Under the pieces are notes generated by a model, which saw only the letters and a program-made list of their open reading frames with translations, was not told the origin of the DNA and ran no database searches. DNA of 64,000 bases, from positions 32,001 through 96,000 of the IMG/VR virus record IMGVR_UViG_3300036792_000267; one strand, written 5' to 3'. A program made the translations under genes and the position numbers. Source of the DNA: a virus. Shown one piece after another: positions 7,220-64,000 of the stretch. Within the stretch, counting starts at the first letter, position 1, and each line of letters begins with the position of its first letter.

Positions 7220-7792
7220 GTGAAGACTTATGTACCAGGAGTGCCCCGAACTTGCAGTCGCTGCCATAAGTCCGACAGTGAAGTTGAGTTCCCGCCATAC
7301 CGTTCGGCTTACTGCGTTGTTTGCCGACCGCTGGCCAAGCAGGACTGGGCTGTCGGCAGCCGGACGACCATCCGTATTCAGGAGAGTGCTCAGCGGCTGG
7401 CCCGTCATCAGCGCGATCCGGACGGGGAGTGGCGTAAGGAACTGGACAAGCACTTGCGGTCTAAGTTCCATATCACGGTTGACGACTATGACCGGATGTA
7501 TGAAGCTCAGCACGGTCTGTGTGGTATTTGCGGGAAACCAGGTCGCGGGTCTGCCAGATTCGATGGCAGCGAAAGGCGTCTTGCTGTTGACCATGACCGA
7601 CGTTGTTGCCCTGGTGACAAGTCCTGCGGGAAGTGTGTTCGCGGCCTTCTCTGTGGGTCGTGTAACCCTAAGCTCGGTTTTTACGAGCTGTTCGAGAATC
7701 AATGTCAGTCCTGGCGGAACCGCCGTGTTCAAGTGGAGGAGGTGGTGCTAGATGTCCGGAAAGATTGGCGACGACGGAGCCCTGCGGCTTAG
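7220..7792 (+). CDS. Endonuclease VII-family homing endonuclease
   Basis: Q..LCGIC, LAVDHDRRCC, VRGLLCxxCN; lower GC. Confidence 0.85.
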   Translation: MKTYVPGVPRTCSRCHKSDSEVEFPPYRSAYCVVCRPLAKQDWAVGSRTTIRIQESAQRLARHQRDPDGEWRKELDKHLRSKFHITVDDYDRMYEAQHGLCGICGKPGRGSARFDGSERRLAVDHDRRCCPGDKSCGKCVRGLLCGSCNPKLGFYELFENQCQSWRNRRVQVEEVVLDVRKDWRRRSPAA

Positions 7793-8589
7793 TTGGTCCC
7801 GCCTCCGGCTTCATTTAGCATGACGAGTGCCCCGCTAAAGGGGACCTGCTGCGCAAGCACAAGTCGCCGGTGCAGGACGCGCGCAACTACTTTCACGGCA
7901 ACGTGGTTGACCTGGCCATGCGCCGCTGGCTGAGCCAGGAGGACCCGGAGGCCGGGTGGATGGCCGCCCAGGTCGACGCGATCTTCGATGAGTCCATCGG
8001 CATCGCCAGGGACTCTGGTGACGGCATCGTCCGGTGGAAAGGCCCCAACGACAAGAACGAGACCCGCGAGTTCTGCCGCGAGCTGGTGAAGCGGCTGGAG
8101 CCTATCCTGTGCAAGTACGCTATCCCGTTTGAGTGGCAGCCCGCGGAGCGGTTCTCTGTGCCCCTCCGGATCGAGGACCTGAACGGGTCGATGCGCGAGA
8201 TCATCCTCATCGGCGAGATGGACTTGCTGGTGCGTGACCGCGAGGGGCGGTACGCGGTCTGGGACCTGAAGGCGACCAGGGACAACAGCTACTACAAGAA
8301 GGTGCTCGGCCAGCTCGCGTTCTACGCCATCGCCGTGAAGGCGATGAAAGGCCAGTTCCCGGTGATGACGGGACTGATTCAGCCGATGTGCGACCAGCGG
8401 GTGCTCCCGGTCACCGTCGACCATGACGCGGTAGCCCAGATGGCTGGCCGCATTACCAAGGCCGCCCGCGACATCTGGGCCGGCAAGCTCGCCCCAAAAG
8501 CTGACAATGCCGGGTGCGCGTACTGCCCGGTGAAGCACGCCTGCCCCAAGTTCAGCTCCGGCGGCCGGGCAGCCCTGGCTGCGGCGTAG
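7752..8589 (+). CDS. PD-(D/E)xK RecB/Cas4-like exonuclease; needs a 7-nt bypass at 7815-7821
   Basis: Strong SD + ATG 7752; SWS..H-D-E-CP N-terminal motif restored only by hopping CAT TTA G CAT; GEMD, DLK, QLAFY, CAYCPVKHAC. Confidence 0.85.
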
Positions 8590-38762: not shown

Positions 38763-39470
38763 TTAGGCGGCGGCCTCTAGCGCCATCCGGGCCTGGTGCC
38801 GCTCTATGTAGTCGGCTGCAGCCCGTAGCAAGTCGGGGTCGTCGTTGAACATGCCGAGAGCGACGTTGAGGTTCCGGCGGATTAGCCCGCGTAGGCATTT
38901 CCCGCAGCTCCGGTCACCGGGACAGCAACTGCGGTCGTGATCGACGGCGAGGGGGTAAACCTTGCCGGTGCGCTTGCTGACCGAGGTCTCAGGTCGGCCG
39001 CTGATCTCGCAGACGCCGGCCTGCTCAGCTAGTTTTTGGTCGTACCAGCCTGGCGGAAGGCTGTAGACACGATCTCGGTTCTTGGCCCCTTCGCCGTTTG
39101 CGCTGAGGCAGTCCCAGCATTTCCGGCGGTTCTGGTGAGTGGGGTTCACTCTGCAGGTGGCGCAGAGTTTCCCTTGCGCCCGGCAAGCTCCGCACTCGTT
39201 GCGCTCCTTGTCGCCGGGGCTCTTATCTCGCCCGCAGGTAACGCACTTGATTCGGCAGGCCGGGCAACGTTGAGCCTTTGCTCGGTTGTTGCCGCGGTAG
39301 GGCTGGCCGCATGATTCGCAGGGGCGTTCAGCTGTGGCGTATCCGCTGCGCTTACGGACTTTGGCGGCGGCGCACAGGGAGCAGTACGAGCTGAGGGCTC
39401 CTGATGGATAGCGGTGCCGTGGCCGCGTTTTGCAGGTCGGGCAGATGGGTTCGTTTCCGGAGACATTCAC
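38763..39470 (-). CDS. Endonuclease VII-family homing endonuclease with N-terminal Cys repeats
   Basis: LAVDHDRSCCPGDRSCGKCLRGL..N.ALG.F.DDP.LLR.A..Y. Confidence 0.85.
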   Translation of the reverse strand: MNVSGNEPICPTCKTRPRHRYPSGALSSYCSLCAAAKVRKRSGYATAERPCESCGQPYRGNNRAKAQRCPACRIKCVTCGRDKSPGDKERNECGACRAQGKLCATCRVNPTHQNRRKCWDCLSANGEGAKNRDRVYSLPPGWYDQKLAEQAGVCEISGRPETSVSKRTGKVYPLAVDHDRSCCPGDRSCGKCLRGLIRRNLNVALGMFNDDPDLLRAAADYIERHQARMALEAAA

Positions 39471-39637: not shown

Positions 39638-40883
39638 GTGAGCCCGATCCCTGACATCAGTCTTTTGGAGCCCGTAGTGCTCCGAGGGGTCGTTTTAAGT
39701 TGAGAAGTTTGTAACGCCAGAAACGTTGCTGCTGCTCAACCGCCTGGACCAGACCCCGTGGCCCTTCCCGTCCGCCACCTGGGACGTGGTGAAGGGATCG
39801 AGAGCGGTCGCCAAGCCGAACGTGCCCAACTCTGAGGCGCACATCATCTCCCGGCTCGGCAGGAGCCAGGAAAGCGCGAGCTTCATCTACTTGCGCGAGA
39901 AGAAGGTCTTTGAGCCGACCACGCTGCACTGGCTGCGGACGCCGGGCGAGATCGCCCGCATCAACGCCGAGCGCGCGGTGCTGAGGGAGATCAACGACCT
40001 CAACCAGCGGTTCGACAACTTCGCCGAGTGGAGCGCCTGGCAAGCGCTGGGCGGCGCGATCCAGTACAACTACGGCGACGTCCAGGCCCTGGTGGACTAC
40101 AAGTTCCCGCGCAGCCACTTCGTCACCCCGGCCACGCCGTGGGTCACTAACACCGCGCTCGGCTACTACACCACCGGCGGCGCCACCGCGGCCGGCGCGG
40201 GAACCAACAGCGGCCAGCCGGGCCAGCCGACCACCCTGGGCCAGGCCCAGACCTCGCTGACCGCGGCCGGCGGCACCATCACCTACGCGACCCCGGTGTC
40301 GATCATCGAAGACGTGCGGTCGTGGAAGCGGCTGCTGGCCGTGCACGGCCGGGTGCCGGCGAAGGAAGTTTTCGCCACCAGCGTCACCATGGCCGGCCTG
40401 ATGGAAGCGTGGGTGTCCGCCACGCAGGCGTCTACCGTGTCGATCCCGGCGACCATGATGAGCGACCGGATGAAGGACGAATTTTACTCGACCGGCATCA
40501 TGACCGGCTTCATGGGCCTCGTCTGGACCACGGTGGAGCAGGTCTTCGAGTCCGACCTCGGCAACCTGACCTTCTTCGTGCCGGATGGCATGATCTACCT
40601 GGGCAACTACACCGACCAGCGGCCAGTGGAGGTCCTGGTCGGCCCGACTGCCGACGACGAGGCCCCCGAAGGTTTTACCGGAAAATATGCCAAGACCTGG
40701 AAGGAGAAGGACCCGTCCGCTCGTCAGTACCTGTTGGAGTGGCACATGCTCCCGATCATCACCAGGCCTGAGCAGATGCTGGTAGCCACCAACGTCATCT
40801 CTGCGGGCGGCAGCGTCACCGTCCCGGCCGGCTACTACAACGGCGGGGCCGGCACTGGCGGAAGCAACGCGCCGGTCGACTAG
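39638..40883 (+). CDS. Major capsid protein; needs a 7-nt bypass at 39695-39701; start GTG 39638 or ATC 39647
   Basis: Lambda E-like pattern, follows decoration gene; N-terminal PDISLLEPVVLRGVV joins EKFVTPETL only by hopping GTT TTA A GTT. Confidence 0.85.
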
Positions 40884-52823: not shown

Positions 52824-52857
52824 CAGCGCTCTGTTGTCCTTTCCGCGTATTAAAGGT

Positions 52858-53427
52858 ATGGGCAAAAGACTCGACATACCCGTAGGCACGAGATTCGGGA
52901 AGCTGGAAGTCATCGGAGAGGGCGAGCCGAAGGCGTACGGGAAGGACCGGCCGAGCCGCACACTGCGGTGCCGGTGCGAATGCGGGAACGTGGTGGACGT
53001 TACCGTGCGCAAGTTGGTGCACTTGGGCCAGATCTCGTGTAGTCGGTCGTGCGGTAACACCAAGCACGGGCTCGCGCGGCGCAGTACCAGGGACCCTATC
53101 TATAACTGCTGGCAGAGCATCTGGGCACGGACGAACAACCCGAAGGCGACCGGCTACAAGTACTGGGGCGGGCGCGGCATCAGGATGCACGAGCCCTGGA
53201 AAGACCCGGCAGTGTTCAAGGCCGAGGTGGAGGCCGAGATCGGCTTGCGCCCGAGCCAGGACATGAGCGTGGAGCGCATCGACGTTAACGGGCACTACGT
53301 GCCAGGGAACATTATGTGGCTGCCTAAGTCGAAGCAGCCCCTGAGCCGACGTCCTGTCTACAACAGCACGGACGTGGAGGCGATGCTGGCCGCGCACCAC
53401 TGTGCGTGCTGCTCGCGCACCCCTTAA
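52858..53427 (+). CDS. HNH homing endonuclease
   Basis: CRCECG, WGGRGI, SVERIDVNGHYVPGNIMW. Confidence 0.88.
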   Translation: MGKRLDIPVGTRFGKLEVIGEGEPKAYGKDRPSRTLRCRCECGNVVDVTVRKLVHLGQISCSRSCGNTKHGLARRSTRDPIYNCWQSIWARTNNPKATGYKYWGGRGIRMHEPWKDPAVFKAEVEAEIGLRPSQDMSVERIDVNGHYVPGNIMWLPKSKQPLSRRPVYNSTDVEAMLAAHHCACCSRTP

Positions 53428-53484: not shown

Positions 53485-54144
53485 ATGCCGACTGCCAGCA
53501 ACACTTATGCCGGCACCCCGTTCGAGGGCTTTTCGCTGAGCCACGCCGCGATTCTCAACGGCTCTACCGGAGCTGAAGGTGCCACTGTCTACGGCGTGCG
53601 GAACGGCACGATCTCGACGGACCAGGGCAACTTCGAAAACACCGGCGACGACGTCGTGTTGTCCGAACACTTCTGGATAAATTTTGCGAATGTGACCATT
53701 GAAGAGGGTTATATCCCCTTCAGCACGATCGCCTACATCACCGGCACGACGGTCACCAGCTCCGGCGCAGCGGGCGCGGACTACTACGCCATCCCGCTGT
53801 GGACCCTGGCAAGCATGAACCAGGTGACCCAGCCGCTGGCTATCCGCGTGCCGTCCAAGGACGCCGGCGGACAGATCCGGACGCTGGACTTCATCCTGTA
53901 CCGCGTACAGTTCCAGCCGTTCAACTTCACCGGCCCGAGCTACAAGACGGGCCTGAGCTGCAGCATCGCGGGCCGCGCGCTGTTCAGCACTGTCAACGAG
54001 GTCGGCGCGTCGCTGCCTGCCGCTTACGGCGGCACCTCCGGCTCGGCCGGCACCGCCATCGGCCGCCTCGTGTCCCTGCCGGGCACTGAGACGGGCGCGT
54101 TCGTGCCGGAGCCGTTCGGGGCCGGCGGCGGGACGGTGGTCTGA
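53485..54144 (+). CDS. Major tail (tube) protein
   Basis: 219 aa beta-rich; upstream of TAC and tape measure. Confidence 0.75.
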   Translation: MPTASNTYAGTPFEGFSLSHAAILNGSTGAEGATVYGVRNGTISTDQGNFENTGDDVVLSEHFWINFANVTIEEGYIPFSTIAYITGTTVTSSGAAGADYYAIPLWTLASMNQVTQPLAIRVPSKDAGGQIRTLDFILYRVQFQPFNFTGPSYKTGLSCSIAGRALFSTVNEVGASLPAAYGGTSGSAGTAIGRLVSLPGTETGAFVPEPFGAGGGTVV

Positions 54145-54359: not shown

Positions 54360-54493
54360 CTGCGTAAGCTGGCTGTTGGCTGAGGAAGGCCGAGAACGGC
54401 GCGCTTGGGCACAGGGGAGACCCTGAAGCGCGCCGTTCGCATGTCCGCCGATTGTCCCGGCATCAGCCCCGAGAGTCCCTGAGAGGACCCGTT

Positions 54494-55506
54494 ATGCCGG
54501 ATAACAGTGAACTGGATCGTATCGATCCACAGCCGGAGACGTGCAAGCTGTCCACCGGCTTCGAGGTCGACATCGTGCGGATGCGCACCCGCCAGTTCTT
54601 CCGCTTGCTGCGCGTGCTGACCCACGGGGCAGGCCCCGCGCTCACCCAGTCCGGGCTCGACTTCGCGGCCGGAGGCGAGGAGTTCACCCAGAAGCTGCTC
54701 ATGCTCGTGGTGATGTCCATCCCCGACGCCGAGCAGGAGGCCATCGGCTTCCTGGCGTCAATGTGCCGGCCGTCCGGCATCACGGACAAGGCTGCCTCCC
54801 AGCTGACCAAGCAGGAAAACGAGGCCAACCAGGCGCTGTGGACCCGGTTCAACGAGGAGCTGCACAACCCTGACCTGGAGGACACCCTCGACCTGGTTGA
54901 GATTATCGTCCGGCAGGAGTCGCCTGAGCTGCAGGCCCTGGGGAAAAAACTCCAGCGGACGTTCAAGATCTTCCAGGCGACGGGCCAGGACAGGGAGGCC
55001 CCGGAGCCGGAGGCGAGCCCGCAGGAGATCAACTCGCCGGAGCGTTCGCCTCAGCTTTCGACGTCCTCAGCCACGAGTACGGGTGGACCGACGAGTACGT
55101 CCTCGACCTCCCGGTCTGCCGGCTCCGGCAGTGCCTCGAAGCGGCGGGCGCACGCCGGAAGCGAGAGCAGCTAAGCCGCCTGCGGCTGGCCGAATGGCAG
55201 GTGAAGATGGTGTGCCAGTTCATCGGCGCGCAGGCCATGGTGGACACCAAGGCGCACGGCGGCAAGAACCCGCTGGTGGAGCTGGCCGCATCCATCGACA
55301 TCTTCGGCGGCAAGTCCCCCGAGGAGCAGGAGCTTGACCGCATTCGCGGGCCGAAGGTGGCCGACTCGGTTGAGGACGACCCGCGGTTCGGCAAGGTGGC
55401 CGCCGACCCCGACGCCGGCGTGGAGGCCGCGAATGCGAGCGGTTCGTATGAGGCTTTCATGGCCATGATGGGCGGACCGCCGCCTATGCCGGGCCGCGGG
55501 GGGTGA
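54494..55506 (+). CDS. Tail assembly chaperone G (54494-55174) and GT via -1 frameshift
   Basis: GGGGAAAAAAC at 54940-54950; -1 frame open to 55506 with HEYGWTDEYVLDLP motif. Confidence 0.8.
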
Positions 55507-55528
55507 GGGCGTGGGCGTAGTAGTCAGC

Positions 55529-56230
55529 ATGGTACGTAATTCATCAATGCTGTCCGACGAGTCTTGGCTGCGCGAGCGCTACCTCGTTGACGAACTGTCC
55601 ACCACCGCCATTGCGGCGCTGGCCAACTGCTCTCAGGCCACGGTGTGCAACCGGCTGGCCGGGTACGGAATCCCGCGGCGTCCCCGAGGTCGCTTTACGC
55701 AGAGCCGGATCGACGCTGACGGCCGAGAGTGCACGGCTTGCGGTGACTACAAAGCGTGGAACGAGTACTCGCCTAGCAAGCCGACGCAGCCAGGCGGCCG
55801 GTACTCCGTCTGCAAGGTCTGCTGGAACGGCACGCGCGGTGGCGGCCCCGGTAACCGGAATGGCGAGTACCGTGCGTGGGCACTCAAGCGCATGGGCATC
55901 ACGCAAGCCGAGTACGACTGGCTGCTAGCCCTGCAGAAGGGCGTGTGCGCTCTCCATGGTGGCCCGGAGACTAGGAAGGGTGCGCTGTACCTTTCCGTCG
56001 ACCACGACCACAACTGCTGTCCGCCGGTAAAGGTCGGGCAGACCCGGTGCTGCAAGAAGTGCATCCGCGGCCTGCTCTGCCACGACTGCAACCACATGGT
56101 CGGCCTAGCTGAGAAGCTAGGTCAGGCGTGGCGGTTCCCTGATTACCTGGGCTCGCGCCCCTTCATGGGGAAGGGGGTGGTGCTCATGACGCCTTATTCT
56201 GAGCCTCTGAGCCACAGTTGTGGCTTATGA
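55529..56230 (+). CDS. Endonuclease VII-family homing endonuclease with N-terminal HTH
   Basis: WLRERY..LST..IA, LSVDHDHNCC, IRGLLCHDCN. Confidence 0.85.
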   Translation: MVRNSSMLSDESWLRERYLVDELSTTAIAALANCSQATVCNRLAGYGIPRRPRGRFTQSRIDADGRECTACGDYKAWNEYSPSKPTQPGGRYSVCKVCWNGTRGGGPGNRNGEYRAWALKRMGITQAEYDWLLALQKGVCALHGGPETRKGALYLSVDHDHNCCPPVKVGQTRCCKKCIRGLLCHDCNHMVGLAEKLGQAWRFPDYLGSRPFMGKGVVLMTPYSEPLSHSCGL

Positions 56231-59200
56231 GGGACCAGAATACTGGTTAGATCGCTTTGGTATGTAATTTACAAGGCGATCGGTTTAACATTCAGGTGAC
56301 TTCGGCGACCTGATGCGGGACGCGGCGCAGGCTAAGGCCGCGCTGCAGGGGATGGGCGATGCGGCCAAGGCGGAGACCGCGGCCGAGGTGGCGGGCGCGA
56401 CCCAGGCCGCCGCCGCGCGCGGCAAGGGCATCACGTCCATCCAGCAGGAGACGCAGGCCCTTAACCAGCTCGCCAACGCCGCCAAGCAGACCAACGTCCA
56501 GCTGCTCTACGGCGGCCGGAATGACATGACCCAGCACCTGAGCGACCTGGCTCAGGAGCTGAACTACACCACCTTGCTCAACCGGCAGAAGTGGCTCGGC
56601 TTCTCCTCCGTCCAGCAGGCCATGTCGTACCGCCAGCAGATGTATAACCTGGCGCTGCTGGAGAACAAAGCGCACTTCGCCGGCTACCTGACCGCGGACC
56701 AGTACCTGGGCTTCCTGCAGCGCGAGACCGCCCAGACCGCGGCGCTGTCGGCCGCCATCCGCGACCGCAGCGCGGCCATCGGCGCCGAGACCCAGATGCT
56801 GCTCGCGCACGCCAACGCGCTGCAGGGCACCCACGCGACGGCAGGCAGCCTGGGCGAGGGCCTGAGCACGGTCAACGCCTACAACGTGGCGCTGGTCGGG
56901 CTGCCGGACACGGTGGTCACCAAGGCCGTCCTTGATGACAGCCAGGCGATGTCGCAGCTGGCTGCCTACCGCGCGGCGCTGACCTCGCTTCCCAACGCGG
57001 AGACCACCGACATCACCTCGGTTGCCACCCGGCTGGGCGGCGTCCCGCTGACGGGCGCGCGCCAGGCGGTGCCGGTCAGCGTCCGCCCCGAGATCGACTA
57101 CGCCGCGATCAACAAGATGCTGTCCCAGGCGGTCGCCGGGGCGCACCCGGAGGCGCTGCGCGCGCCGCTGGCCATCACCGGGTCGGGAGCGGCGGATTCC
57201 GCGCTGTCGGCCACGGCGGATTCCGCGCTGTCGGCCACGGCGGACGACGCCGGCGCGCTGTCGGCGTCCATGTCCGAGCTGAGCGACAAGGCGGCCATTT
57301 CCGCCGAGGCAATCAGCAAGTTCCAGGACTCCCTCGCGCTGGCCGCGGTCGACGCCCGCGCGCTGGAGCAGGGACTCGGGCGCCTGTCGGCCGCCGAGCA
57401 GCTGCTGTCTGAGGTTAACGCCCAGTTCGTGCCGCAGAAAGGCCGCAAGAAGGCGGCGGCTGCCGACCCGGCGCAGAACCTCGCTGACCTGTACGGGCTG
57501 CAGGACGTCGCCGGCGCGCTGCGCGAGGGCGCGATCTCCGACGCGCCGCGCGGCTACCCGCTGTCCGCCCCGGGCATGAAGATCATCCCGCCGACGCAGG
57601 CGGGAGAAGAAGACCTGTGGTCGGGGCTGTCCAAGTACATGCAGGGCGGCAAGGCCGCGGGGACTGCCACCGAGAAGGTTGCCGTCGAGGGCGGCCAGGA
57701 GGCCGAGGCGACCCTCGACAAGATCGCCGTCCAGATGGAGTGGCTGGACCATGAGGATGCCAAGCCGAAGCTAGAGCTGGAAGGCGGCCAGGAGGCGCTA
57801 GACGACGCCTACCACCTGGACGGCGTACTCGTCGGCCTGACTTACGAGCGCGCGGAGCCGGAAGTCGCCCTGCAAGGCGGAGCCGAGGCGCTGGGAGAAG
57901 TCACCGCCCTGGACGAGGGGCTGCACGAGATCCCGCACGAGACTGACACCGTCCTGGTGGTCGAGTCCTCCGGGGCCTCCAGCGAGGTCCGCGATTACAG
58001 CCGCGACATTGAGGACATCGAGCGTGAGGTGGGCACTCGCGCCGACTTCGAGGACACCGAGGCGGAGAGCGGGCTGTCGCGCTGGCTGACCGCCCTGGCT
58101 GCGGCGGTCCAGCACAAGTACGACTTCTACGCCAGCTTCAACGACGACGCGGCCAAGGCCGAGCTGGCCGGGTGGATCAGCGAGCTTGAGGCGGCACGCG
58201 CCGAGGAGAACCGCATCACCGCCGGCATGGGCGGTGCCTCCGGTGGCGGTGGCGGCGGAGGGCCGCCTGTTCCCCCTGCTGCCGCCGGCGACGCGCCCAA
58301 CCCGGATGACCGGGCGATGTGGGAGGCCGTCGCCGCCGAGATGGCCAAGGTAGACGCCCTCTTCAAGAACACCGGCCGTGACGCCGCTGCCGCCGGGGCC
58401 GCCGCGTCCAAGGCCGGCCGGGACGGCGCGCAGGCGGTCACCTCGATGGTGCTGCCGCTGACCAACGGCGCGCGCGGCTGGTTCGGCCTGCTCACCCAGG
58501 TCAACCTGTTCGGCGGCCTGCTGCCCGGCATCCTGGGCCACACCACGGCCCTGCACTTCGTCCTTGACGCGATCATCGAGACGATCGCCATCCTGCTGCC
58601 GGCCATCGTCACCATGGCAGCCGGGCTGACCGCGTTCGGCATCGCTGGCTACGACGCCGGCAAGGCGGTCTACGAGCGCCTGACGGCGATTCACACCGCG
58701 GCCGACGCCACCGGCCAGTCCATCCCGCCGCTGACCGGGAACCTGGAGAAGCTGCACGACACGGTGCGCCCGCAGGTCTGGCAGTTGTATGGCGACGCCA
58801 TCACCGTCGCGGGGGCGAAGTCCGGGCTCTTCAACCAGCTGGCCATCCAGACCGGGAACGTGGTCGACCGGCTGGCCGCGCGGCTGACGGTGGACCTGGT
58901 GCAGGGTGGCCAGGGGCTGAAGACGTTCCTGTCGGTCGGCGCGGAGAACCTGGCCAAGCTCGGCACCATCTTCGACAACCTCGGCAAGGCCCTGATGGCG
59001 TTCATCAAGGTCACCGAGGACACCCACATTGACCAGATTTTCCTGGCCATCTTCGTGGCGCTGTCCCAGTTCCTGGTGCTCATCACCAAGCTGCCCACCC
59101 CGTTGCTCGCCGCCGTGGTCGCGCTGCACGCGTTCTGGCTGTGGGGCGGCCTGCTGGCCACCGTGGTCCTGCAGATGCTCAACCCGCTGCGCTCGCTGGC

Positions 59201-62200
59201 ACTGGCGCTGGGCGCGGTCGACGCCGCCTCAGTGAACGGCGGCCTGGCCAGCCTGACCAAGGACGCGTCGGCCTGGCAGCGGCTGAAGGCCGGCCTGACC
59301 GACATCGCAGCCGGGTTCGGCGCACTGCCGGCCCGGTTCAGCCTGAGCAGCAAGGCGGCCGGCGAAGCTGAAGTCGCCTTCGATGACATGGGCAACGCGC
59401 TGGTGGCTACTGACGCGGAGATGGCGGCCGGCGCCACGTCCGGCGGCGGCCTGCTCTCGGTGCTCGGGCGGCTCGTCCCGGCCGGCGGCGCTGCCGCCGG
59501 GGCTGCCGCGCTGCTGGGCAGCGCGCTGGCCGCCGCCTACGTCTACCTGGCGCTGCTGCCCGACGCGACCCAGAAGTGGATCAACTCCCTCAACCAGACG
59601 CTGGCTAAGACCACCGCGTTCACTGTGGTCTCCGCGACGGTCGGTGACCTGGCGGCGGTCACCCAGCAACTGGCAAAGGCCCAGGCCGACGGGACAGGCA
59701 ACGCCTCTGAGCTGGCCGGGGCGCAGCGCGGCCTGTCCAGTGACCTGTCCAACGAGCTGGGGCACGTCGGGGCGGTGTCCAAGGCTTACGGCACCGACTT
59801 CCTGGGCGCGCTGGAGCTGCTGAACGCGGCCGGGGTGAAGACCTCCGACATCTTCTCCGCCCAGGGCAAGGCCTGGGAGGCGGACCTGCAGCAGGTCCAG
59901 GGCCTGGTGCAGGGCTACAAGGCGATGGGCCAGGGGCTGTCCGCGCTGCAGCAGGACGTCTCGGTCCAGCTGGTGACCACCAGCGACCAGGTAACCGCCA
60001 TGGGCAACCTGAACAAGGCCTGGGACGCCTGGACCAAGACCGTCGGCGGGGCCCCCAGCACGTTCATCGCCCTGGCCCAGGGCTTCGCCACGTTCAACAC
60101 GGATGCCGCGGCGGCCGGGGCCGCTATGACCGGGCTGAACGCGCCCAGCCTCACCCTGCAGAGCGACTTCCAGTCCAACTACAACAACGTCCAGGCGTTT
60201 TTCGACGCGTTCCGCAACGACCAGGCGCTCACCGGGGCGGGCGACTTCACCAAGTTCGTCAAGGACGCGGTAGCCAGCCTCATCCCGATGGCGGGTGGCT
60301 CCAAGGAGGCCGCCGCCCAGATCTCCGCCCTCGCCCAGGAGGCCGGCGGGCCGGCCACGACCAACATCAAGACGCTGCAGCAGTGGGTCGGCAACATCAA
60401 GGACCCGCTGCTGCAGATGTATAAGGCCAGCAATGACGCAGCGATCGGGGCCTCAAGCCTGAGCCAGGACGCGGCCCGGCTGACCTCCACCCTGCAGCAG
60501 CAGCTCAACCCGGCCATGGCATCGGCCATCTTCAACGCCCACGGCGGCCAGGCCGTCTTCAACGCGTTCGCCGACGCCCTGGCCAAGGGCGGGCCGAGCA
60601 GCGGCGCGACCATCACCGCGGCGCACAACGTGGCCCGCGAGCTGCTGGCGGTGTCCGGCTCCAGCGCTAACGCCAAGGCGAACTTCGTCGGGTTCACCGA
60701 GGCGATGGGGCTGAGCGCCAAGCAGGCTAACGCCCTGTGGGCCCAGGTCACCAAGATCCCGGCCAACGCCAGGACCACCTACACCCTGGACGCGGAGCAG
60801 GCGCTGCAGAAGGCGGAAAAGCTCTCCGCGGAGCTGCCGCACCTGACCGGCCAGAAGAAGCTCCAGGTTGAGGCAGAGGTCAAGGACCTGCAGTTGCAGG
60901 CCATGAACGACAAGCTCAAGGCCGCCAAGGGGGACGTCAGCGACCTCAACAACGCGAGCCTGAGCAAGCTGCGCGGCCAGCTCGCGTCCACCGCCGGCTC
61001 TGCGGCCGACCTCGTCAAGCCCGGCGAAGTCGACACCATCCTCAAGTCGTTCAAGGACGGCACGTTCTACGAGGTCACGTTCCTGGCGTGGATTCCGCAG
61101 GTCCAGCGCGCCCTGAACGTGGTGAACCACGATGTCGGGCAGTTTTTCGCTCATGACATCCCGGTGGCGTTCGGCGTCACCAGCCACGCCTTCGAGGCGG
61201 CGTGGGACGGGATGGTCAACTGGTTCACCCAGTCGGTGCCGCACGGGCTGGAGACGGCCTGGGGCACCGTGTCGTCGTTCTTCGACAAGGCGTTCACCCA
61301 CGACATCCCCGCGGCGTGGGACTCCGCCTGGGGCACCCTGGTCTCCCCGGTCACTCACGCGTTCGATGACGTGAAAACCTGGGTCTCCTCCAATTTCGAC
61401 ACCTGGTGGAAGACCCATGGCCAGGGCGTCATGGCCATCTGGGACACCTTGTGGGGGGAGATCTCCGGGGCGGCCATCAAGGCGTTCGACCTGGTAGAGA
61501 CCGGGGCCACCGGCTTCCGGCACGTCCTCACCGCCATCTTCACCAGCGGCCCCGTCAAGCAGGTCTGGTCCGGGTTCTCCGGTGCAGCCGCCGACACCTG
61601 GCATTTCATCGAGTCCCTGGCCACTGCCGCCTGGCAGATGGCGGTCGCCGGCGCGCGGGCCACCTGGAACGAGGTCGCCGCGCTAGGCAAGGCGGCCTGG
61701 GACCTGGTGGTCGCGGCGGCCAGGGCTGCCTGGGACATCATCTGGGCCCTGATCGGCGCCGAGGTCAAGTCCGCGGCAGCCATCGCGACCGCGTCGTTCA
61801 AGGTGCTGTGGGACCAGGTGGTCGCGCTGGCCAAGGTCGGCTGGGACACCATCGTCCTGATCATCAACGAGGTCATTGACCTCTTCACCGGGCACTGGGC
61901 CACGGCGTGGAAGGACCTGCAGGCGTACGGCATCCAGGTGTGGAACGCCGTCAAGACAGCCGGCATCCAGACGTGGAACGCGATCTCGACTGCGGCGACC
62001 CAGGTGTGGAACGCGATCTGGAACGCCGTCAAGACGGCTGCCACCCAGACCTGGAACGCGTTCAAGACCGGCGGCCAGCAGGCGTGGTCCGCGATCTGGC
62101 ACTCGCTGCAGGCCACGTTCATCAACCCGCTGGCGGCTTTCTTCACCTCCACCGTGCCCAAGTGGTGGGACAGCTTCGCGAACTTCGCGTCCTCTACCTG

Positions 62201-64000
62201 GACCAAGGTGTGGTCCGGCTTCCAGAAGAACGTCCTGCAGCCGATCGAGGGCTTCTTCACCTCGACACTGCCCAACGCCATGTGGAACTCCCTCAAGGGC
62301 GGGATTGACCACGTAATCTCCGGGCTGAACACGGTCATCGGCTGGATCAACGCGGTGACTTCGGTCGTGGGCGTGCACATCTCCCCGATCTCGATGCTCG
62401 CGGCCGGCGGCGTGGCCCCGCAGCGGATGGCGCACGGCAGCGTGCCGGGGACGGGCGACGAGGACGGCACGCACATCATCGCGATGGGCGGGGAGTACAT
62501 CCTGCGCAAGCCCGCCAGGATGGCCCTGCAGGCCGCCTACGGGCCCCAGTTCCTCGATGAGCTGAACCAGGCGGACTCCTGGCTGGGCTCGGGCTCGCGC
62601 GGCAGCACGGCCACCCAGCAGCGCCGTCCGGGCCGGTACGCGTCCGGTGGCATCCCGGTCATCTCCGACATCGGCAACTGGCTGGGCGACGCGGGCAGCG
62701 CCGTCGCCGGGGCCGCCTCCTCCGTCTGGCACGGCGTCGCCGACGCGGCCGGCGAGGTCGCCAAGTTCGGGGAGAAGGCCGTCTTCGACGCCATGTGGTC
62801 GGTCTCCGGCGCCCCGGCGGAGAAGGCGATGGAGGCGCTGGGCACGCCCGGTGACATGGGCGCGGCGTGGCTGCAGACCATCCACAACGGGGTGGAGAAC
62901 TACGTCACCGCCCAGACCGCCAAGGCGCAGGCGTCCAGCAAGTCGACCGGCTCCATCACCGGCGCCGGGGTGTCCAACTCCTCGGCCTACGCGGCCCTGC
63001 AGTCGGCGGCGGCCAAGAAGGGCTGGACCGGGGCCCAGTGGGCCGCGCTCAACGACGTGGAGATGGCCGAGGCAGGCTACAGCCTCACCGCCACCAACCC
63101 GAGCAGCGGCGCGTACGGCATGGCCCAGTTTATTAACGGACCGGGAGAGTACGCACAGTACGGCGGTAATTCGACAACAGCAGCGGGACAAGCGGTAGCG
63201 ATGGTAAATTACATCGCACAAAGATACGGAAATCCAGAGAGCGCATGGGCTCATGAGGTCGCGTACCACTGGTATGCCGCAGGCGGGCCGGTCATCGACG
63301 CCATCCGCGCCGTCACCGGCAACGTCAACGAGCAGGAGGCGATGGCCCTCGGCTCGTGGCTGCTGACCAGGATGAACCCGGCGGGTACCGCGCCGCACTA
63401 CAGCGAGTCCGGGGCCTGGCTGATTAACACCGCCAAGAACAAGGCCGTCACCCAGACGCAGGCGCTCAACGCCAACAACGCTGCCCGGTACCTCGCGCCG
63501 TACTACGCCAAGGCCATCCTCGGGTCCACCCCGGCGTCGTGGAAGGCGACCCCGGCGACCGCCGCACTCAAGGCCGACGCCGCCGTGGCCGCCGCTACCG
63601 GCACGCACTGGTCCACCCCGTCGGCCGCCACCCTCGCAGCCGGGTGGAACGCCGTGTCGACCGACCTGGGCCCGGCCGTCAAGCAGGTCACAGCGGCGGC
63701 CAGCACCAGTGACACCGCCGCCTACCAGGCTGCTGCCGCGCAGCTGTACCCCGACTGGGAGGGCGCGCTCAACCCCTGGAAGACGCTGAGCGCGCTCCAC
63801 CAGCCCAAGGGCGTATCGGCCCCGGACTGGGCGTCGTGGCTGGCCCAGCGCGCCGTCATCGCCAACCGGGTGAGCGTGGCCGGCAGCTACGTCGCGCCGC
63901 TGTTCGATGACCTGAAAGTCAACCCGCAGGAGCTGACCGCGGCCATGTGGTCGCACACCGACTCCAGCGTGCGGCGCTGGCAGGCGGCGATGGACGTGGC
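56220..64000 (+). CDS. Tape measure protein (partial, >2500 aa) with lytic transglycosylase domain; 5' end needs two bypasses
   Basis: Ala/Trp periodic repeats; SLT motif E-AGY...NPSSGAYGMAQF near 63060-63130; frame apparently open from 56298 to window end. Confidence 0.9.
57192..57239 (+). repeat. 24-nt tandem duplication in tape measure gene
   Basis: GCGGATTCCGCGCTGTCGGCCACG twice, in frame. Confidence 0.8.

Follow-up and report, generated by a model that had tools for sequence, protein, structure and literature searches.

How do ribosomes reach the long reading frame of a phage tape measure gene when the conserved beginning of its protein is spread over three frames? The question is raised by positions 56171-56315 of a 64,000-nucleotide (nt) stretch of DNA (hereafter the window), which comprises positions 32001-96000 of a 151,377-bp IMG/VR virus record (IMGVR_UViG_3300036792_000267; 68% G+C, direct terminal repeats) from an uncultured soil phage with 37 tRNA genes. 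The open reading frame (ORF) listing opens the tape measure gene at ATG 56313. The first-pass annotation placed the start at GTG 56220 and proposed two obligatory ribosomal hops, each from a codon followed by TTA to a copy of that codon downstream. Comparison with related loci strongly supports these two serial hops (TGG to TGG over 14 nt and GGT to GGT over 13 nt), and we consider it probable that the tape measure gene starts at GTG 56220 and that the first 22 residues of its product come from three frames joined by two programmed bypasses.

The inserts and their relatives

All of the elements lie on the plus strand. The first coding segment (56220-56246) begins with GTG and continues as A-Y-E-G-P-E-Y-W (GCT TAT GAG GGA CCA GAA TAC TGG), its last codon, TGG 56244-56246, being take-off codon A. 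It is followed by gap A (TTAGATCGCTTTGG, 56247-56260, 14 nt), which opens with TTA and closes with the landing codon TGG 56258-56260; without a hop the frame of the first segment ends at TAA 56265-56267, and the +1 frame reads TAG. The second coding segment (56261-56284) reads Y-V-I-Y-K-A-I-G (TAT GTA ATT TAC AAG GCG ATC GGT) up to take-off codon B, GGT 56282-56284, where gap B (TTAACATTCAGGT, 56285-56297, 13 nt) again opens with TTA and closes with its landing codon, GGT 56295-56297; here the unhopped frame ends at TGA 56297-56299, and the +1 frame reads TAA. UUA therefore stands directly 3′ of the last in-frame codon at both 56247 and 56285. From 56298 the third segment reads GAC TTC GGC GAC CTG ATG (56313) CGG GAC and continues into the long frame. 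The frame of the second segment holds no ATG, GTG or TTG upstream of TAT 56261, and that of the third no start codon earlier than ATG 56313. A direct reading of the sequence bore out every codon, coordinate and displacement on which the proposal of two hops was built.

Both inserts are real DNA and not assembly errors, because they are carried by a 579-nt contig at depth 154 from an independent assembly of the probable source run, which matches window positions 56198-56776 with zero differences, and by a second contig from another study (run X5), in which both inserts are present at unchanged lengths. Chance is not a credible explanation of two TTA-led blocks, since the rarest codon, TTA, occurs twice 38 nt apart and the preceding codon is repeated exactly at the end of each insert. 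The G+C content drops to 38-50% across 56220-56300. In the codons of 56223-56284, G+C occupies 7 of 16 third positions (A/T-ending codons include TAT, GGA, CCA, GAA, TAT, GTA and ATT), as against 12-14 of 16 in the uninterrupted loci L010 and L013, counted by eye. This low third-position G+C in the first 16 sense codons points either to their foreign origin or to selection, at the hop sites, for mRNA that is slow or unstructured.

Scans of contigs, both viral and metagenomic, and a protein search together yielded 22 distinct loci; a second, alignment-based scan of the viral contigs returned the same 11 loci, and the protein search, in a large database, contributed only four more proteins, one of them without DNA. 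In nine uninterrupted relatives (L007, L009/L015, L010, L013, L016, L021, L022, L065 and L066), the peptide MAYEGPEYWYVIYKAIGDFGDL-MRD (M-A-Y-E-G-P-E-Y-W-Y-V-I-Y-K-A-I-G-D-F-G-D-L-M-R-D) is encoded in one frame. Relative to these loci, the window carries exactly two insertions, TTAGATCGCTTTGG after TGG and TTAACATTCAGGT after GGT, and removal of the inserts restores both frame and peptide exactly in 21 of 21 aligned loci; L064, which was read separately, has the same peptide as far as D-L. The alignment of homologues that had been suggested as a check on the N-terminus thus found the segment WYVIYKAIGDF present in the relatives, and in a single frame. The unbroken peptide of the relatives suggests that ribosomes hop over the inserts where these are present.

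Judged by these uninterrupted one-frame relatives, in which a GG(A/G)GGTGA Shine-Dalgarno motif lies 3-9 nt upstream of the start, the tape measure protein of the family begins with M-A-Y-E-G and not with M-R-D. In L065 the tape measure frame opens 12 nt past the stop of the chaperone gene, automatic gene calls begin at MAYEG in two of the uninterrupted relatives, and an M-A/S-Y-E-G N-terminus is conserved in all alleles.

The inserts form an allelic series with a common design. All insert types at the start of the tape measure gene begin with TTA (14, 13, 13, 13, 10, 10, 10, 4, 4 and 4 nt); they occupy six codon sites, after Y8, W9, V11, K14, G17 and G20, and those of at least 7 nt all close with a landing codon cognate to the take-off tRNA. 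Gap A measures 14 nt in the window and L003 and 13 nt (TTAGATCGCCTGG) in L008 and L025, and despite this change of length the landing TGG stands directly before the tyrosine codon (TAC) in all gap A alleles. Gap B reads TTAACATCCAGGC in L008, TTAATCCCCAGGT in L025 and TTAACAACCAGGT in run X5, with GGT as the landing codon in three alleles and GGC in L008, both of which are read by tRNA-Gly(GCC). L011 carries a 10-nt insert at another codon, after D-F-G, in which GGT is followed by TTAACCTGGC. The TTAG inserts of four further loci lie within a shared 10-mer, TTAGGCCATT (L012:3430-3475, L019:690-740, L023:1300-1355 and L064:80-200), after AAG in L012 and after GTT plus an extra Ala codon in L019, L023 and L064.

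The pattern of variation suggests that the split segments are still translated. Over 21 codons, the 12 alleles that carry inserts have a ratio of nonsynonymous to synonymous polymorphism (pN/pS) of 0.095. The ratio is 0.087 among members of the double-insert clade, which share both inserts by descent, and 0.20 in the uninterrupted alleles, of which seven were included; as controls, the two shifted frames of these spliced sequences give 2.9 and 1.2. Variable sites are distributed 8/5/30 over the three codon positions; the double-insert clade varies at 8 of its 63 coding sites, six of them third positions, and the spacer of gap B varies at four of five positions while its ends are fixed. In the run X5 variant, the coding segments differ by three synonymous changes and the spacer by two changes. 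Because pN/pS is about 0.09 as against 1.2-2.9 in the controls and variation is biased toward third positions, the three segments, each in its own physical frame, are under purifying selection and kept as protein-coding in the insert-bearing lineages.

Initiation, the proposed hops and the alternatives

A Shine-Dalgarno-like sequence (AAGGGGGTGG, 56171-56180, plus strand) lies 5 nt before ATG 56186, which opens a leader mini-ORF (MTPYSEPLSHSCGL, 56186-56230, plus strand). This mini-ORF is the in-frame tail of the ORF of an upstream nuclease gene, and it ends with GGC TTA TGA (56222-56230). The motif of the leader, GG(A/G)GGTG, is the one found 3-9 nt before the tape measure start in the uninterrupted relatives. 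GTG 56220 has no Shine-Dalgarno sequence of its own, and the stop of the mini-ORF, TGA 56228-56230, falls 8 nt past it. In L023 and L064 the mini-ORF stop overlaps the tape measure start as GTGA or ATGA, a stop-start overlap that is the classical arrangement for coupling of termination and reinitiation. Both the leader tail and its Shine-Dalgarno sequence are kept in L008 and L025, although the nuclease itself has been deleted there. The simplest reading of this arrangement is that termination on the leader mini-ORF would be followed by reinitiation at GTG 56220.

From the layout as a whole, we infer restart, stalling, sliding and the efficiency of the hops as follows. Ribosomes would load at the strong Shine-Dalgarno sequence at 56171-56180, translate the tail of the nuclease ORF, stop at TGA 56228 and restart at GTG 56220. 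After synthesis of M-A-Y-E-G-P-E-Y-W, UGG would occupy the P site and UUA, the rarest codon of the phage and one for which it has no tRNA, the A site; simple slippage by +1 would be unproductive, because it would bring in the stop UAG. In the stalled ribosome, the peptidyl-tRNA(Trp) would unpair, the mRNA would slide by 14 nt, and pairing would be restored at UGG 56258, after which decoding would resume with Y-V-I-Y-K-A-I-G. The second hop would proceed likewise, from GGU 56282 with UUA 56285 in the A site and UAA as the +1 codon, by a 13-nt slide to GGU 56295, and would lead through D-F-G-D-L-M-R-D into the 2758-residue body. Ribosomes that decoded the first or the second UUA would terminate 6 or 4 codons later. 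The product of both hops would hold the junction-spanning peptides AYEGPEYWYVIYK and AIGDFGDLMR.

TTA is the rarest sense codon of the phage (8 of 33,254 codons in 131 confident ORFs), a count made in the phage's own genes, and the codon may be slow to decode in the host. The tRNA cluster of the phage (24197-30595) has 37 genes that serve all 20 amino acids and include readers of AUA, AGA, AGG and UUG, and it is without Leu-UAA and Leu-UAG, as are the clusters of five relatives. The unhopped frame does not always end soon after TTA, as it is open for more than 21 codons in L008, L025, L011, L012 and L019, and the use of TTAA or TTAG, which puts a stop in the +1 frame, is only a trend (7 of ~9 independent events). 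A loose pattern scan of the genome (codon X, TTA, gap, codon X′, long open frame) found TTA to be no better than other trinucleotides, and since it failed to single out TTA, candidates elsewhere in the genome need comparison with homologues. A genome-wide census of in-frame TTA based on third-position G+C (GC3) was noisy owing to antisense frames.

A hairpin with a 10-bp stem and a 12-nt loop is predicted at 56250-56281 (plus strand), with one arm (56250-56259) inside gap A and the other (56272-56281, (TA)C AAG GCG ATC) directly before take-off codon B. Its z-score is -3.0 in the window and -4.8 in L003. At 56256:56275 the window pairs U with G, L003 U with A, and L008 and L025 C with G; with four sequences to compare, the predicted hairpin is suggestive only. 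It appears to be specific to the double-insert clade, since relatives with a single insert show no significant RNA structure (z from -0.3 to -0.8). An outer pairing in the window fold, between take-off A and the TTA of site B, was rejected as it is not conserved in L008 and L025.

Several points weigh against this account of two hops, and some of them favor a start at ATG 56313, with the inserts as scars of the nuclease cassette tolerated in an untranslated leader. ATG 56313 is conserved in 21 of the 22 loci and is where the ORF listing begins the gene, the region before it has the low G+C content described above, and AGGTGA precedes it. This AGGTGA stands at 13 nt, outside the 3-9 nt found at clear starts. 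A shorter protein initiated internally at 56313 could be made alongside the bypass product or even predominate. In L064, however, the equivalent of Met 56313 is a Lys and the next in-frame start codon lies 32 codons downstream, so an internal start cannot explain the conservation of the segment in that locus. A pN/pS of 0.09 with variation at third positions is not expected of sequence that is decaying or constrained only as DNA, and the inserts are never random, all being TTA-led and those of at least 7 nt being closed by a cognate landing codon; we therefore regard initiation at 56313 over a dead leader as unlikely. Repeated gene conversion from uninterrupted alleles could account for part of the selection signal. 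The first hop would come after just 9 residues, too early for a nascent-peptide signal like that of gene 60 to act, and peptidyl-tRNA drop-off is frequent at a length of ~9 residues. Re-pairing is not universal in the family, because a matching landing codon is missing from three short insert types of relatives (TTAG after AAG, TTAG after GTT, and the TT break in G004 described below); at the TTAG inserts of L012, L019, L023 and L064, reading would resume after TAG, a codon that differs from the take-off codon, so re-pairing cannot explain them.

The same alleles bear on the mode of recoding. Frameshifting in place of hopping, by -1 or +2 in gap A and +1 in gap B, possibly after UUA is read as Leu and with 4-5 residues added per site, would fit the absence of stops from the -1 and +2 frames of gap A in the window, and the 4-nt insert of L017 (TTAC after TAT) is as compatible with a +1 shift as with a hop. 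It would, however, demand opposite shifts at one and the same site for the 14-nt gap of the window and the 13-nt gap of L008 and L025, TAG or TAA directly after the take-off codon closes the +1 frame at both sites, no slippery sequence or slippery heptamer is present, and the landing codons are kept in spite of free variation in the spacers. We hold frameshifting to be very unlikely, and the change in gap length, the synonymous landing codons, the closed +1 frame and the lack of a slippery site fit bypassing by re-pairing of the peptidyl-tRNA. That the blocks are removed before translation, from the RNA by some mini-intron of unknown kind or by editing, or from part of the DNA population, has nothing direct in its favor beyond the position of the blocks in or beside the predicted hairpin, and we find it scarcely believable: we know of no mechanism for blocks of 4-14 nt, the contig at depth 154 shows no block-free form (contigs do drop rare variants), and a TTA after the take-off codon with a cognate codon closing the block follows a translational logic. 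A third, imperfect hop had also been raised in the first-pass annotation. In its explicit form, translation from ATG 56186 would pass from GGC 56222 over TTATGAG to GGA 56232 and give a protein beginning MTPYSEPLSHSCG-PEYW. The Shine-Dalgarno sequence is indeed positioned for ATG 56186, with none at GTG 56220, and the layout in L019 gives a perfect GGC-to-GGC pair. Yet GGC TTA at the leader end is an automatic by-product of the conserved codons xTG GCT TAY, the landing GGA in the window is not cognate to tRNA-Gly(GCC), all alleles keep the M-A/S-Y-E-G N-terminus, and the stop 8 nt from GTG together with the overlapping starts of L023 and L064 is what usual coupling looks like. A triple hop is therefore possible and not needed, and we think it highly improbable.

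The proposed nuclease cassette and other TTA breaks

The body of the tape measure gene (D-F-G-D-L, then M(56313)-R-D onward; 56298-64000, plus strand) runs past the end of the window to position 96589 of G000 and encodes 2758 residues from ATG 56313. It matches PHROGs 4200, 1272 and 58 (E-values of 1e-20 to 1e-13) and has a transglycosylase-like part; its position after the genes for tail chaperones G and G/T agrees with the assignment, and relatives keep this gene order. Upstream lie a conserved major-tail-like gene (53485-54144), a tail assembly chaperone gene (54452-55174; PHROG match at 54452-55171) that a frameshift extends in the 54897/55201 frames and, between the chaperone G/T and tape measure genes, an Endonuclease VII family gene of 239 codons (55511-56230, plus strand). 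The ORF of this gene matches Pfam family PF02945 with an E-value of 6e-12 and 45.7 bits (gathering cut-off 23.6), and its product is likely the free-standing homing-type nuclease of a cassette. Farther upstream, an HNH endonuclease gene (52834-53427; PHROG 374, E-value 4e-35) directly precedes the major-tail-like gene and is absent from all compared related loci. The nearest cultured phage is Microbacterium phage Magritte, whose capsid and tail proteins are only ~50% identical. A scan of GTDB genomes found no relative, and among 50,697 cultured phage records, queried with the junction and the first 400 residues as nucleotide and protein, only Endonuclease VII genes of Rhodococcus phages matched.

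A full Endonuclease VII gene stands at the tape measure position in the window, L003/L004, L012 and L019, and the end of one is seen at the contig edge of L064; a C-terminal remnant is found in L008, L025 and probably L017/L018. The gene is absent at this position from all uninterrupted relatives. In L011 (L011:3183-3935), an HNH gene (PF01844) instead of Endonuclease VII stands directly before the tape measure gene. Inserts are present in nine of the nine judgeable lineages with a nuclease gene or remnant and in two of the 11 without one (L005 and L006), an association with a Fisher p of 3e-4, uncorrected for phylogeny. The tape measure bodies of L012 and L019 are 99-100% identical over 700 nt and the small ORF upstream is 93% identical; their nuclease cassettes are only 69% identical, their TTAG inserts lie at different codons, and their first codons show many synonymous differences. 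Because near-identical bodies are joined to divergent cassettes and insert sites, the insert and the recoded 5′ end evidently travel with the nuclease gene, as far as sequence comparison can tell. We infer that the inserts are part of a mobile cassette, whose components would be a nuclease gene of the Endonuclease VII type, a leader and a tape measure 5′ end that has been recoded. The inserts probably break the nuclease's own target site, in the manner in which the 50-nt gap of T4 gene 60 relates to MobA.

Endonuclease VII genes number exactly three in the genome, and the neighbor of each (the tape measure, capsid or exonuclease gene) has a TTA-led insert; homologue comparison of other TTA breaks in the genome covered the capsid and exonuclease sites. 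The major capsid gene has a 7-nt insert, TTAAGTT, after GTT (39692-39701, insert at 39695), which is absent in five relatives that read L-R-G-V-V-E-K-F-V-T-P-E unbroken, and an Endonuclease VII gene (38763-39470, minus strand) adjoins it. In the PD-(D/E)XK exonuclease gene, a 7-nt insert, TTAGCAT, follows CAT (7812-7821, insert at 7815); it too is absent in five relatives, DNA similarity to four of which starts immediately past the insert, and an Endonuclease VII gene (7220-7792) lies directly upstream. The first-pass annotation had suggested that serial hops would give a sharper UUA-dependent response and limit the amount of the tape measure protein, a regulatory purpose that our comparison does not support; the capsid gene's insert, which has the same design, argues against scarcity as the general purpose.

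Other genomes show related arrangements. The link between nuclease genes and inserts is not absolute, as four Endonuclease VII genes in G002, G003 and G005 stand beside unbroken genes. In G004 (L067; G004:10000-13200, reverse strand, ~1200-1230), an Endonuclease VII gene lies just after the tape measure gene, and the next gene, which reads ATG ACC CAA TGG CGT TAC TAC, is broken by TT before AGC AAC, a 2-nt break that creates a TTA; G005 has a nuclease gene at the equivalent place and an unbroken neighbor. At the capsid start of G002 (L054; G002:101501-104948), an Endonuclease VII gene is adjacent to a gene with no insert, whose first 16 codons include unusual A/T-ending ones (ATA, CTA twice, GTA twice and GGA). 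These codons may represent immunity of the target site by synonymous recoding.

Known bypassing systems and the meaning of the locus

The locus is best read as two serial UUA-triggered bypasses like those proposed for the phiHau3 terminase, in a gene new to this type of recoding. The UUA-led gaps in the terminase gene of the Streptomyces phage phiHau3 reportedly go back to Smith et al. 2013. UUA-led inserts of 10 and 7 nt in the phiHau3 terminase (g6/7/8) and in the StrepC.1 and S. catenulae prophages have been proposed to be bypassed (Antonov et al. 2023, PMC10732093). The phiHau3 gene has two 10-nt inserts, the experimental support is partial and includes a junction peptide detected by mass spectrometry in E. 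coli, and such inserts occur in 3 of 100 terminase genes (PMC10732093). The resemblance to our locus extends to short UUA-led, frame-breaking inserts whose flanks abut in uninterrupted homologues, two of them in one essential late gene; to an unhopped frame that ends soon past UUA; to a proposed stall at a hungry UUA followed by re-pairing of the peptidyl-tRNA downstream; and to a stem-loop 5′ of a take-off site. As in the phiHau3 type, the landing codon is cognate to the take-off tRNA (TGG/TGG and GGT/GGT here, GGT/GGC in L008), and the +1-frame stop that raised recoding in a phiHau3 reporter (PMC10732093) is matched by a natural TAG or TAA in that spot. In position, the hairpin predicted here is like the stem-loops that have been proposed 5′ in phiHau3 and gene 60 and that could form again in the wake of a sliding ribosome. 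The locus differs from phiHau3 in several ways. The tape measure gene takes the place of the terminase gene, and gaps of 14 and 13 nt that of gaps of 10 or 7. Only 8 codons separate the two sites, both of which fall within the first 17 codons; the phage, of 151 kb and with 37 tRNAs, is from soil and uncultured; the allelic series is large (at least 10 insert types at 6 codons); and the inserts are clearly linked to a neighboring nuclease gene, a link not described for phiHau3 in PMC10732093.

The second point of comparison is the 50-nt gap of T4 gene 60, a part of the element of the homing endonuclease MobA (Bonocora et al. 2011, as related by Manning and Atkins 2022, bioRxiv 10.1101/2022.08.31.505936). 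As far as that account describes the element, it shares with our locus the matching take-off and landing codons (Gly at site B here) and a presumably slow codon in the A site, a gap that travels with a free-standing nuclease gene and a cassette-borne recoded target sequence, retention of the gap after loss or truncation of the nuclease (L008, L025, L005 and L006 here), and near-identical phages with and without the element. On the same account, the gap of gene 60 is 50 nt long as against 13-14 nt here, and a stop takes the place of UUA in the A site; its nascent-peptide signal is impossible here, where 9 and 17 residues would have been made at the take-offs; and MobA is an HNH enzyme, whereas the enzyme here is of the Endonuclease VII family and its element is intergenic with an unsplit target gene. 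Two more distant parallels are summarized in PMC10732093. In E. coli, ribosomes hop over hungry codons at a low level (Gallant and Lindsley; Weiss et al. 1987). These hops are likewise short and directed to a matching downstream codon when the A-site codon is slow, but as summarized there they are rare errors in artificial constructs and not a selected layout in an essential gene. [quoted passage not shown] Our search of the literature found no report of UUA-led gaps in a tape measure gene or of a link to nuclease cassettes.

Programmed bypassing in bacteria has had one well-proven case, T4 gene 60, and one partly tested UUA-dependent case, the phiHau3 terminase. The tape measure gene would be a new gene for such recoding, which until now has been proposed only for a few Streptomyces phage terminase genes. 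Its relatives provide a natural mutational series, with 14- and 13-nt gaps, synonymous landing codons, free spacers, six codon sites and matched relatives with empty sites, and such an allelic series can define the rules of short-range hopping without constructs. For annotation, the consequence is that gene callers split genes of this kind or start them too late. The locus also joins separate literatures, as it sets the hungry-codon trigger of phiHau3 inside a nuclease cassette like that of gene 60 and MobA, and it points to gaps that arose as marks of immunity carried by selfish DNA, not as regulators. We tentatively propose, with slightly more doubt than belief, that UUA-led mini-gaps are self-immunity marks of free-standing Endonuclease VII/HNH homing cassettes in a large group of uncultured high-G+C soil phages, that hops of 7-14 nt are efficient enough in the host for even the major capsid protein, and that in this allele the hairpin whose 5′ arm lies in gap A forms again behind the ribosome and drives hop B. 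If this is true, the mini-gaps would be "translational introns," letting a selfish nuclease disrupt its target in essential genes without harm to the protein.

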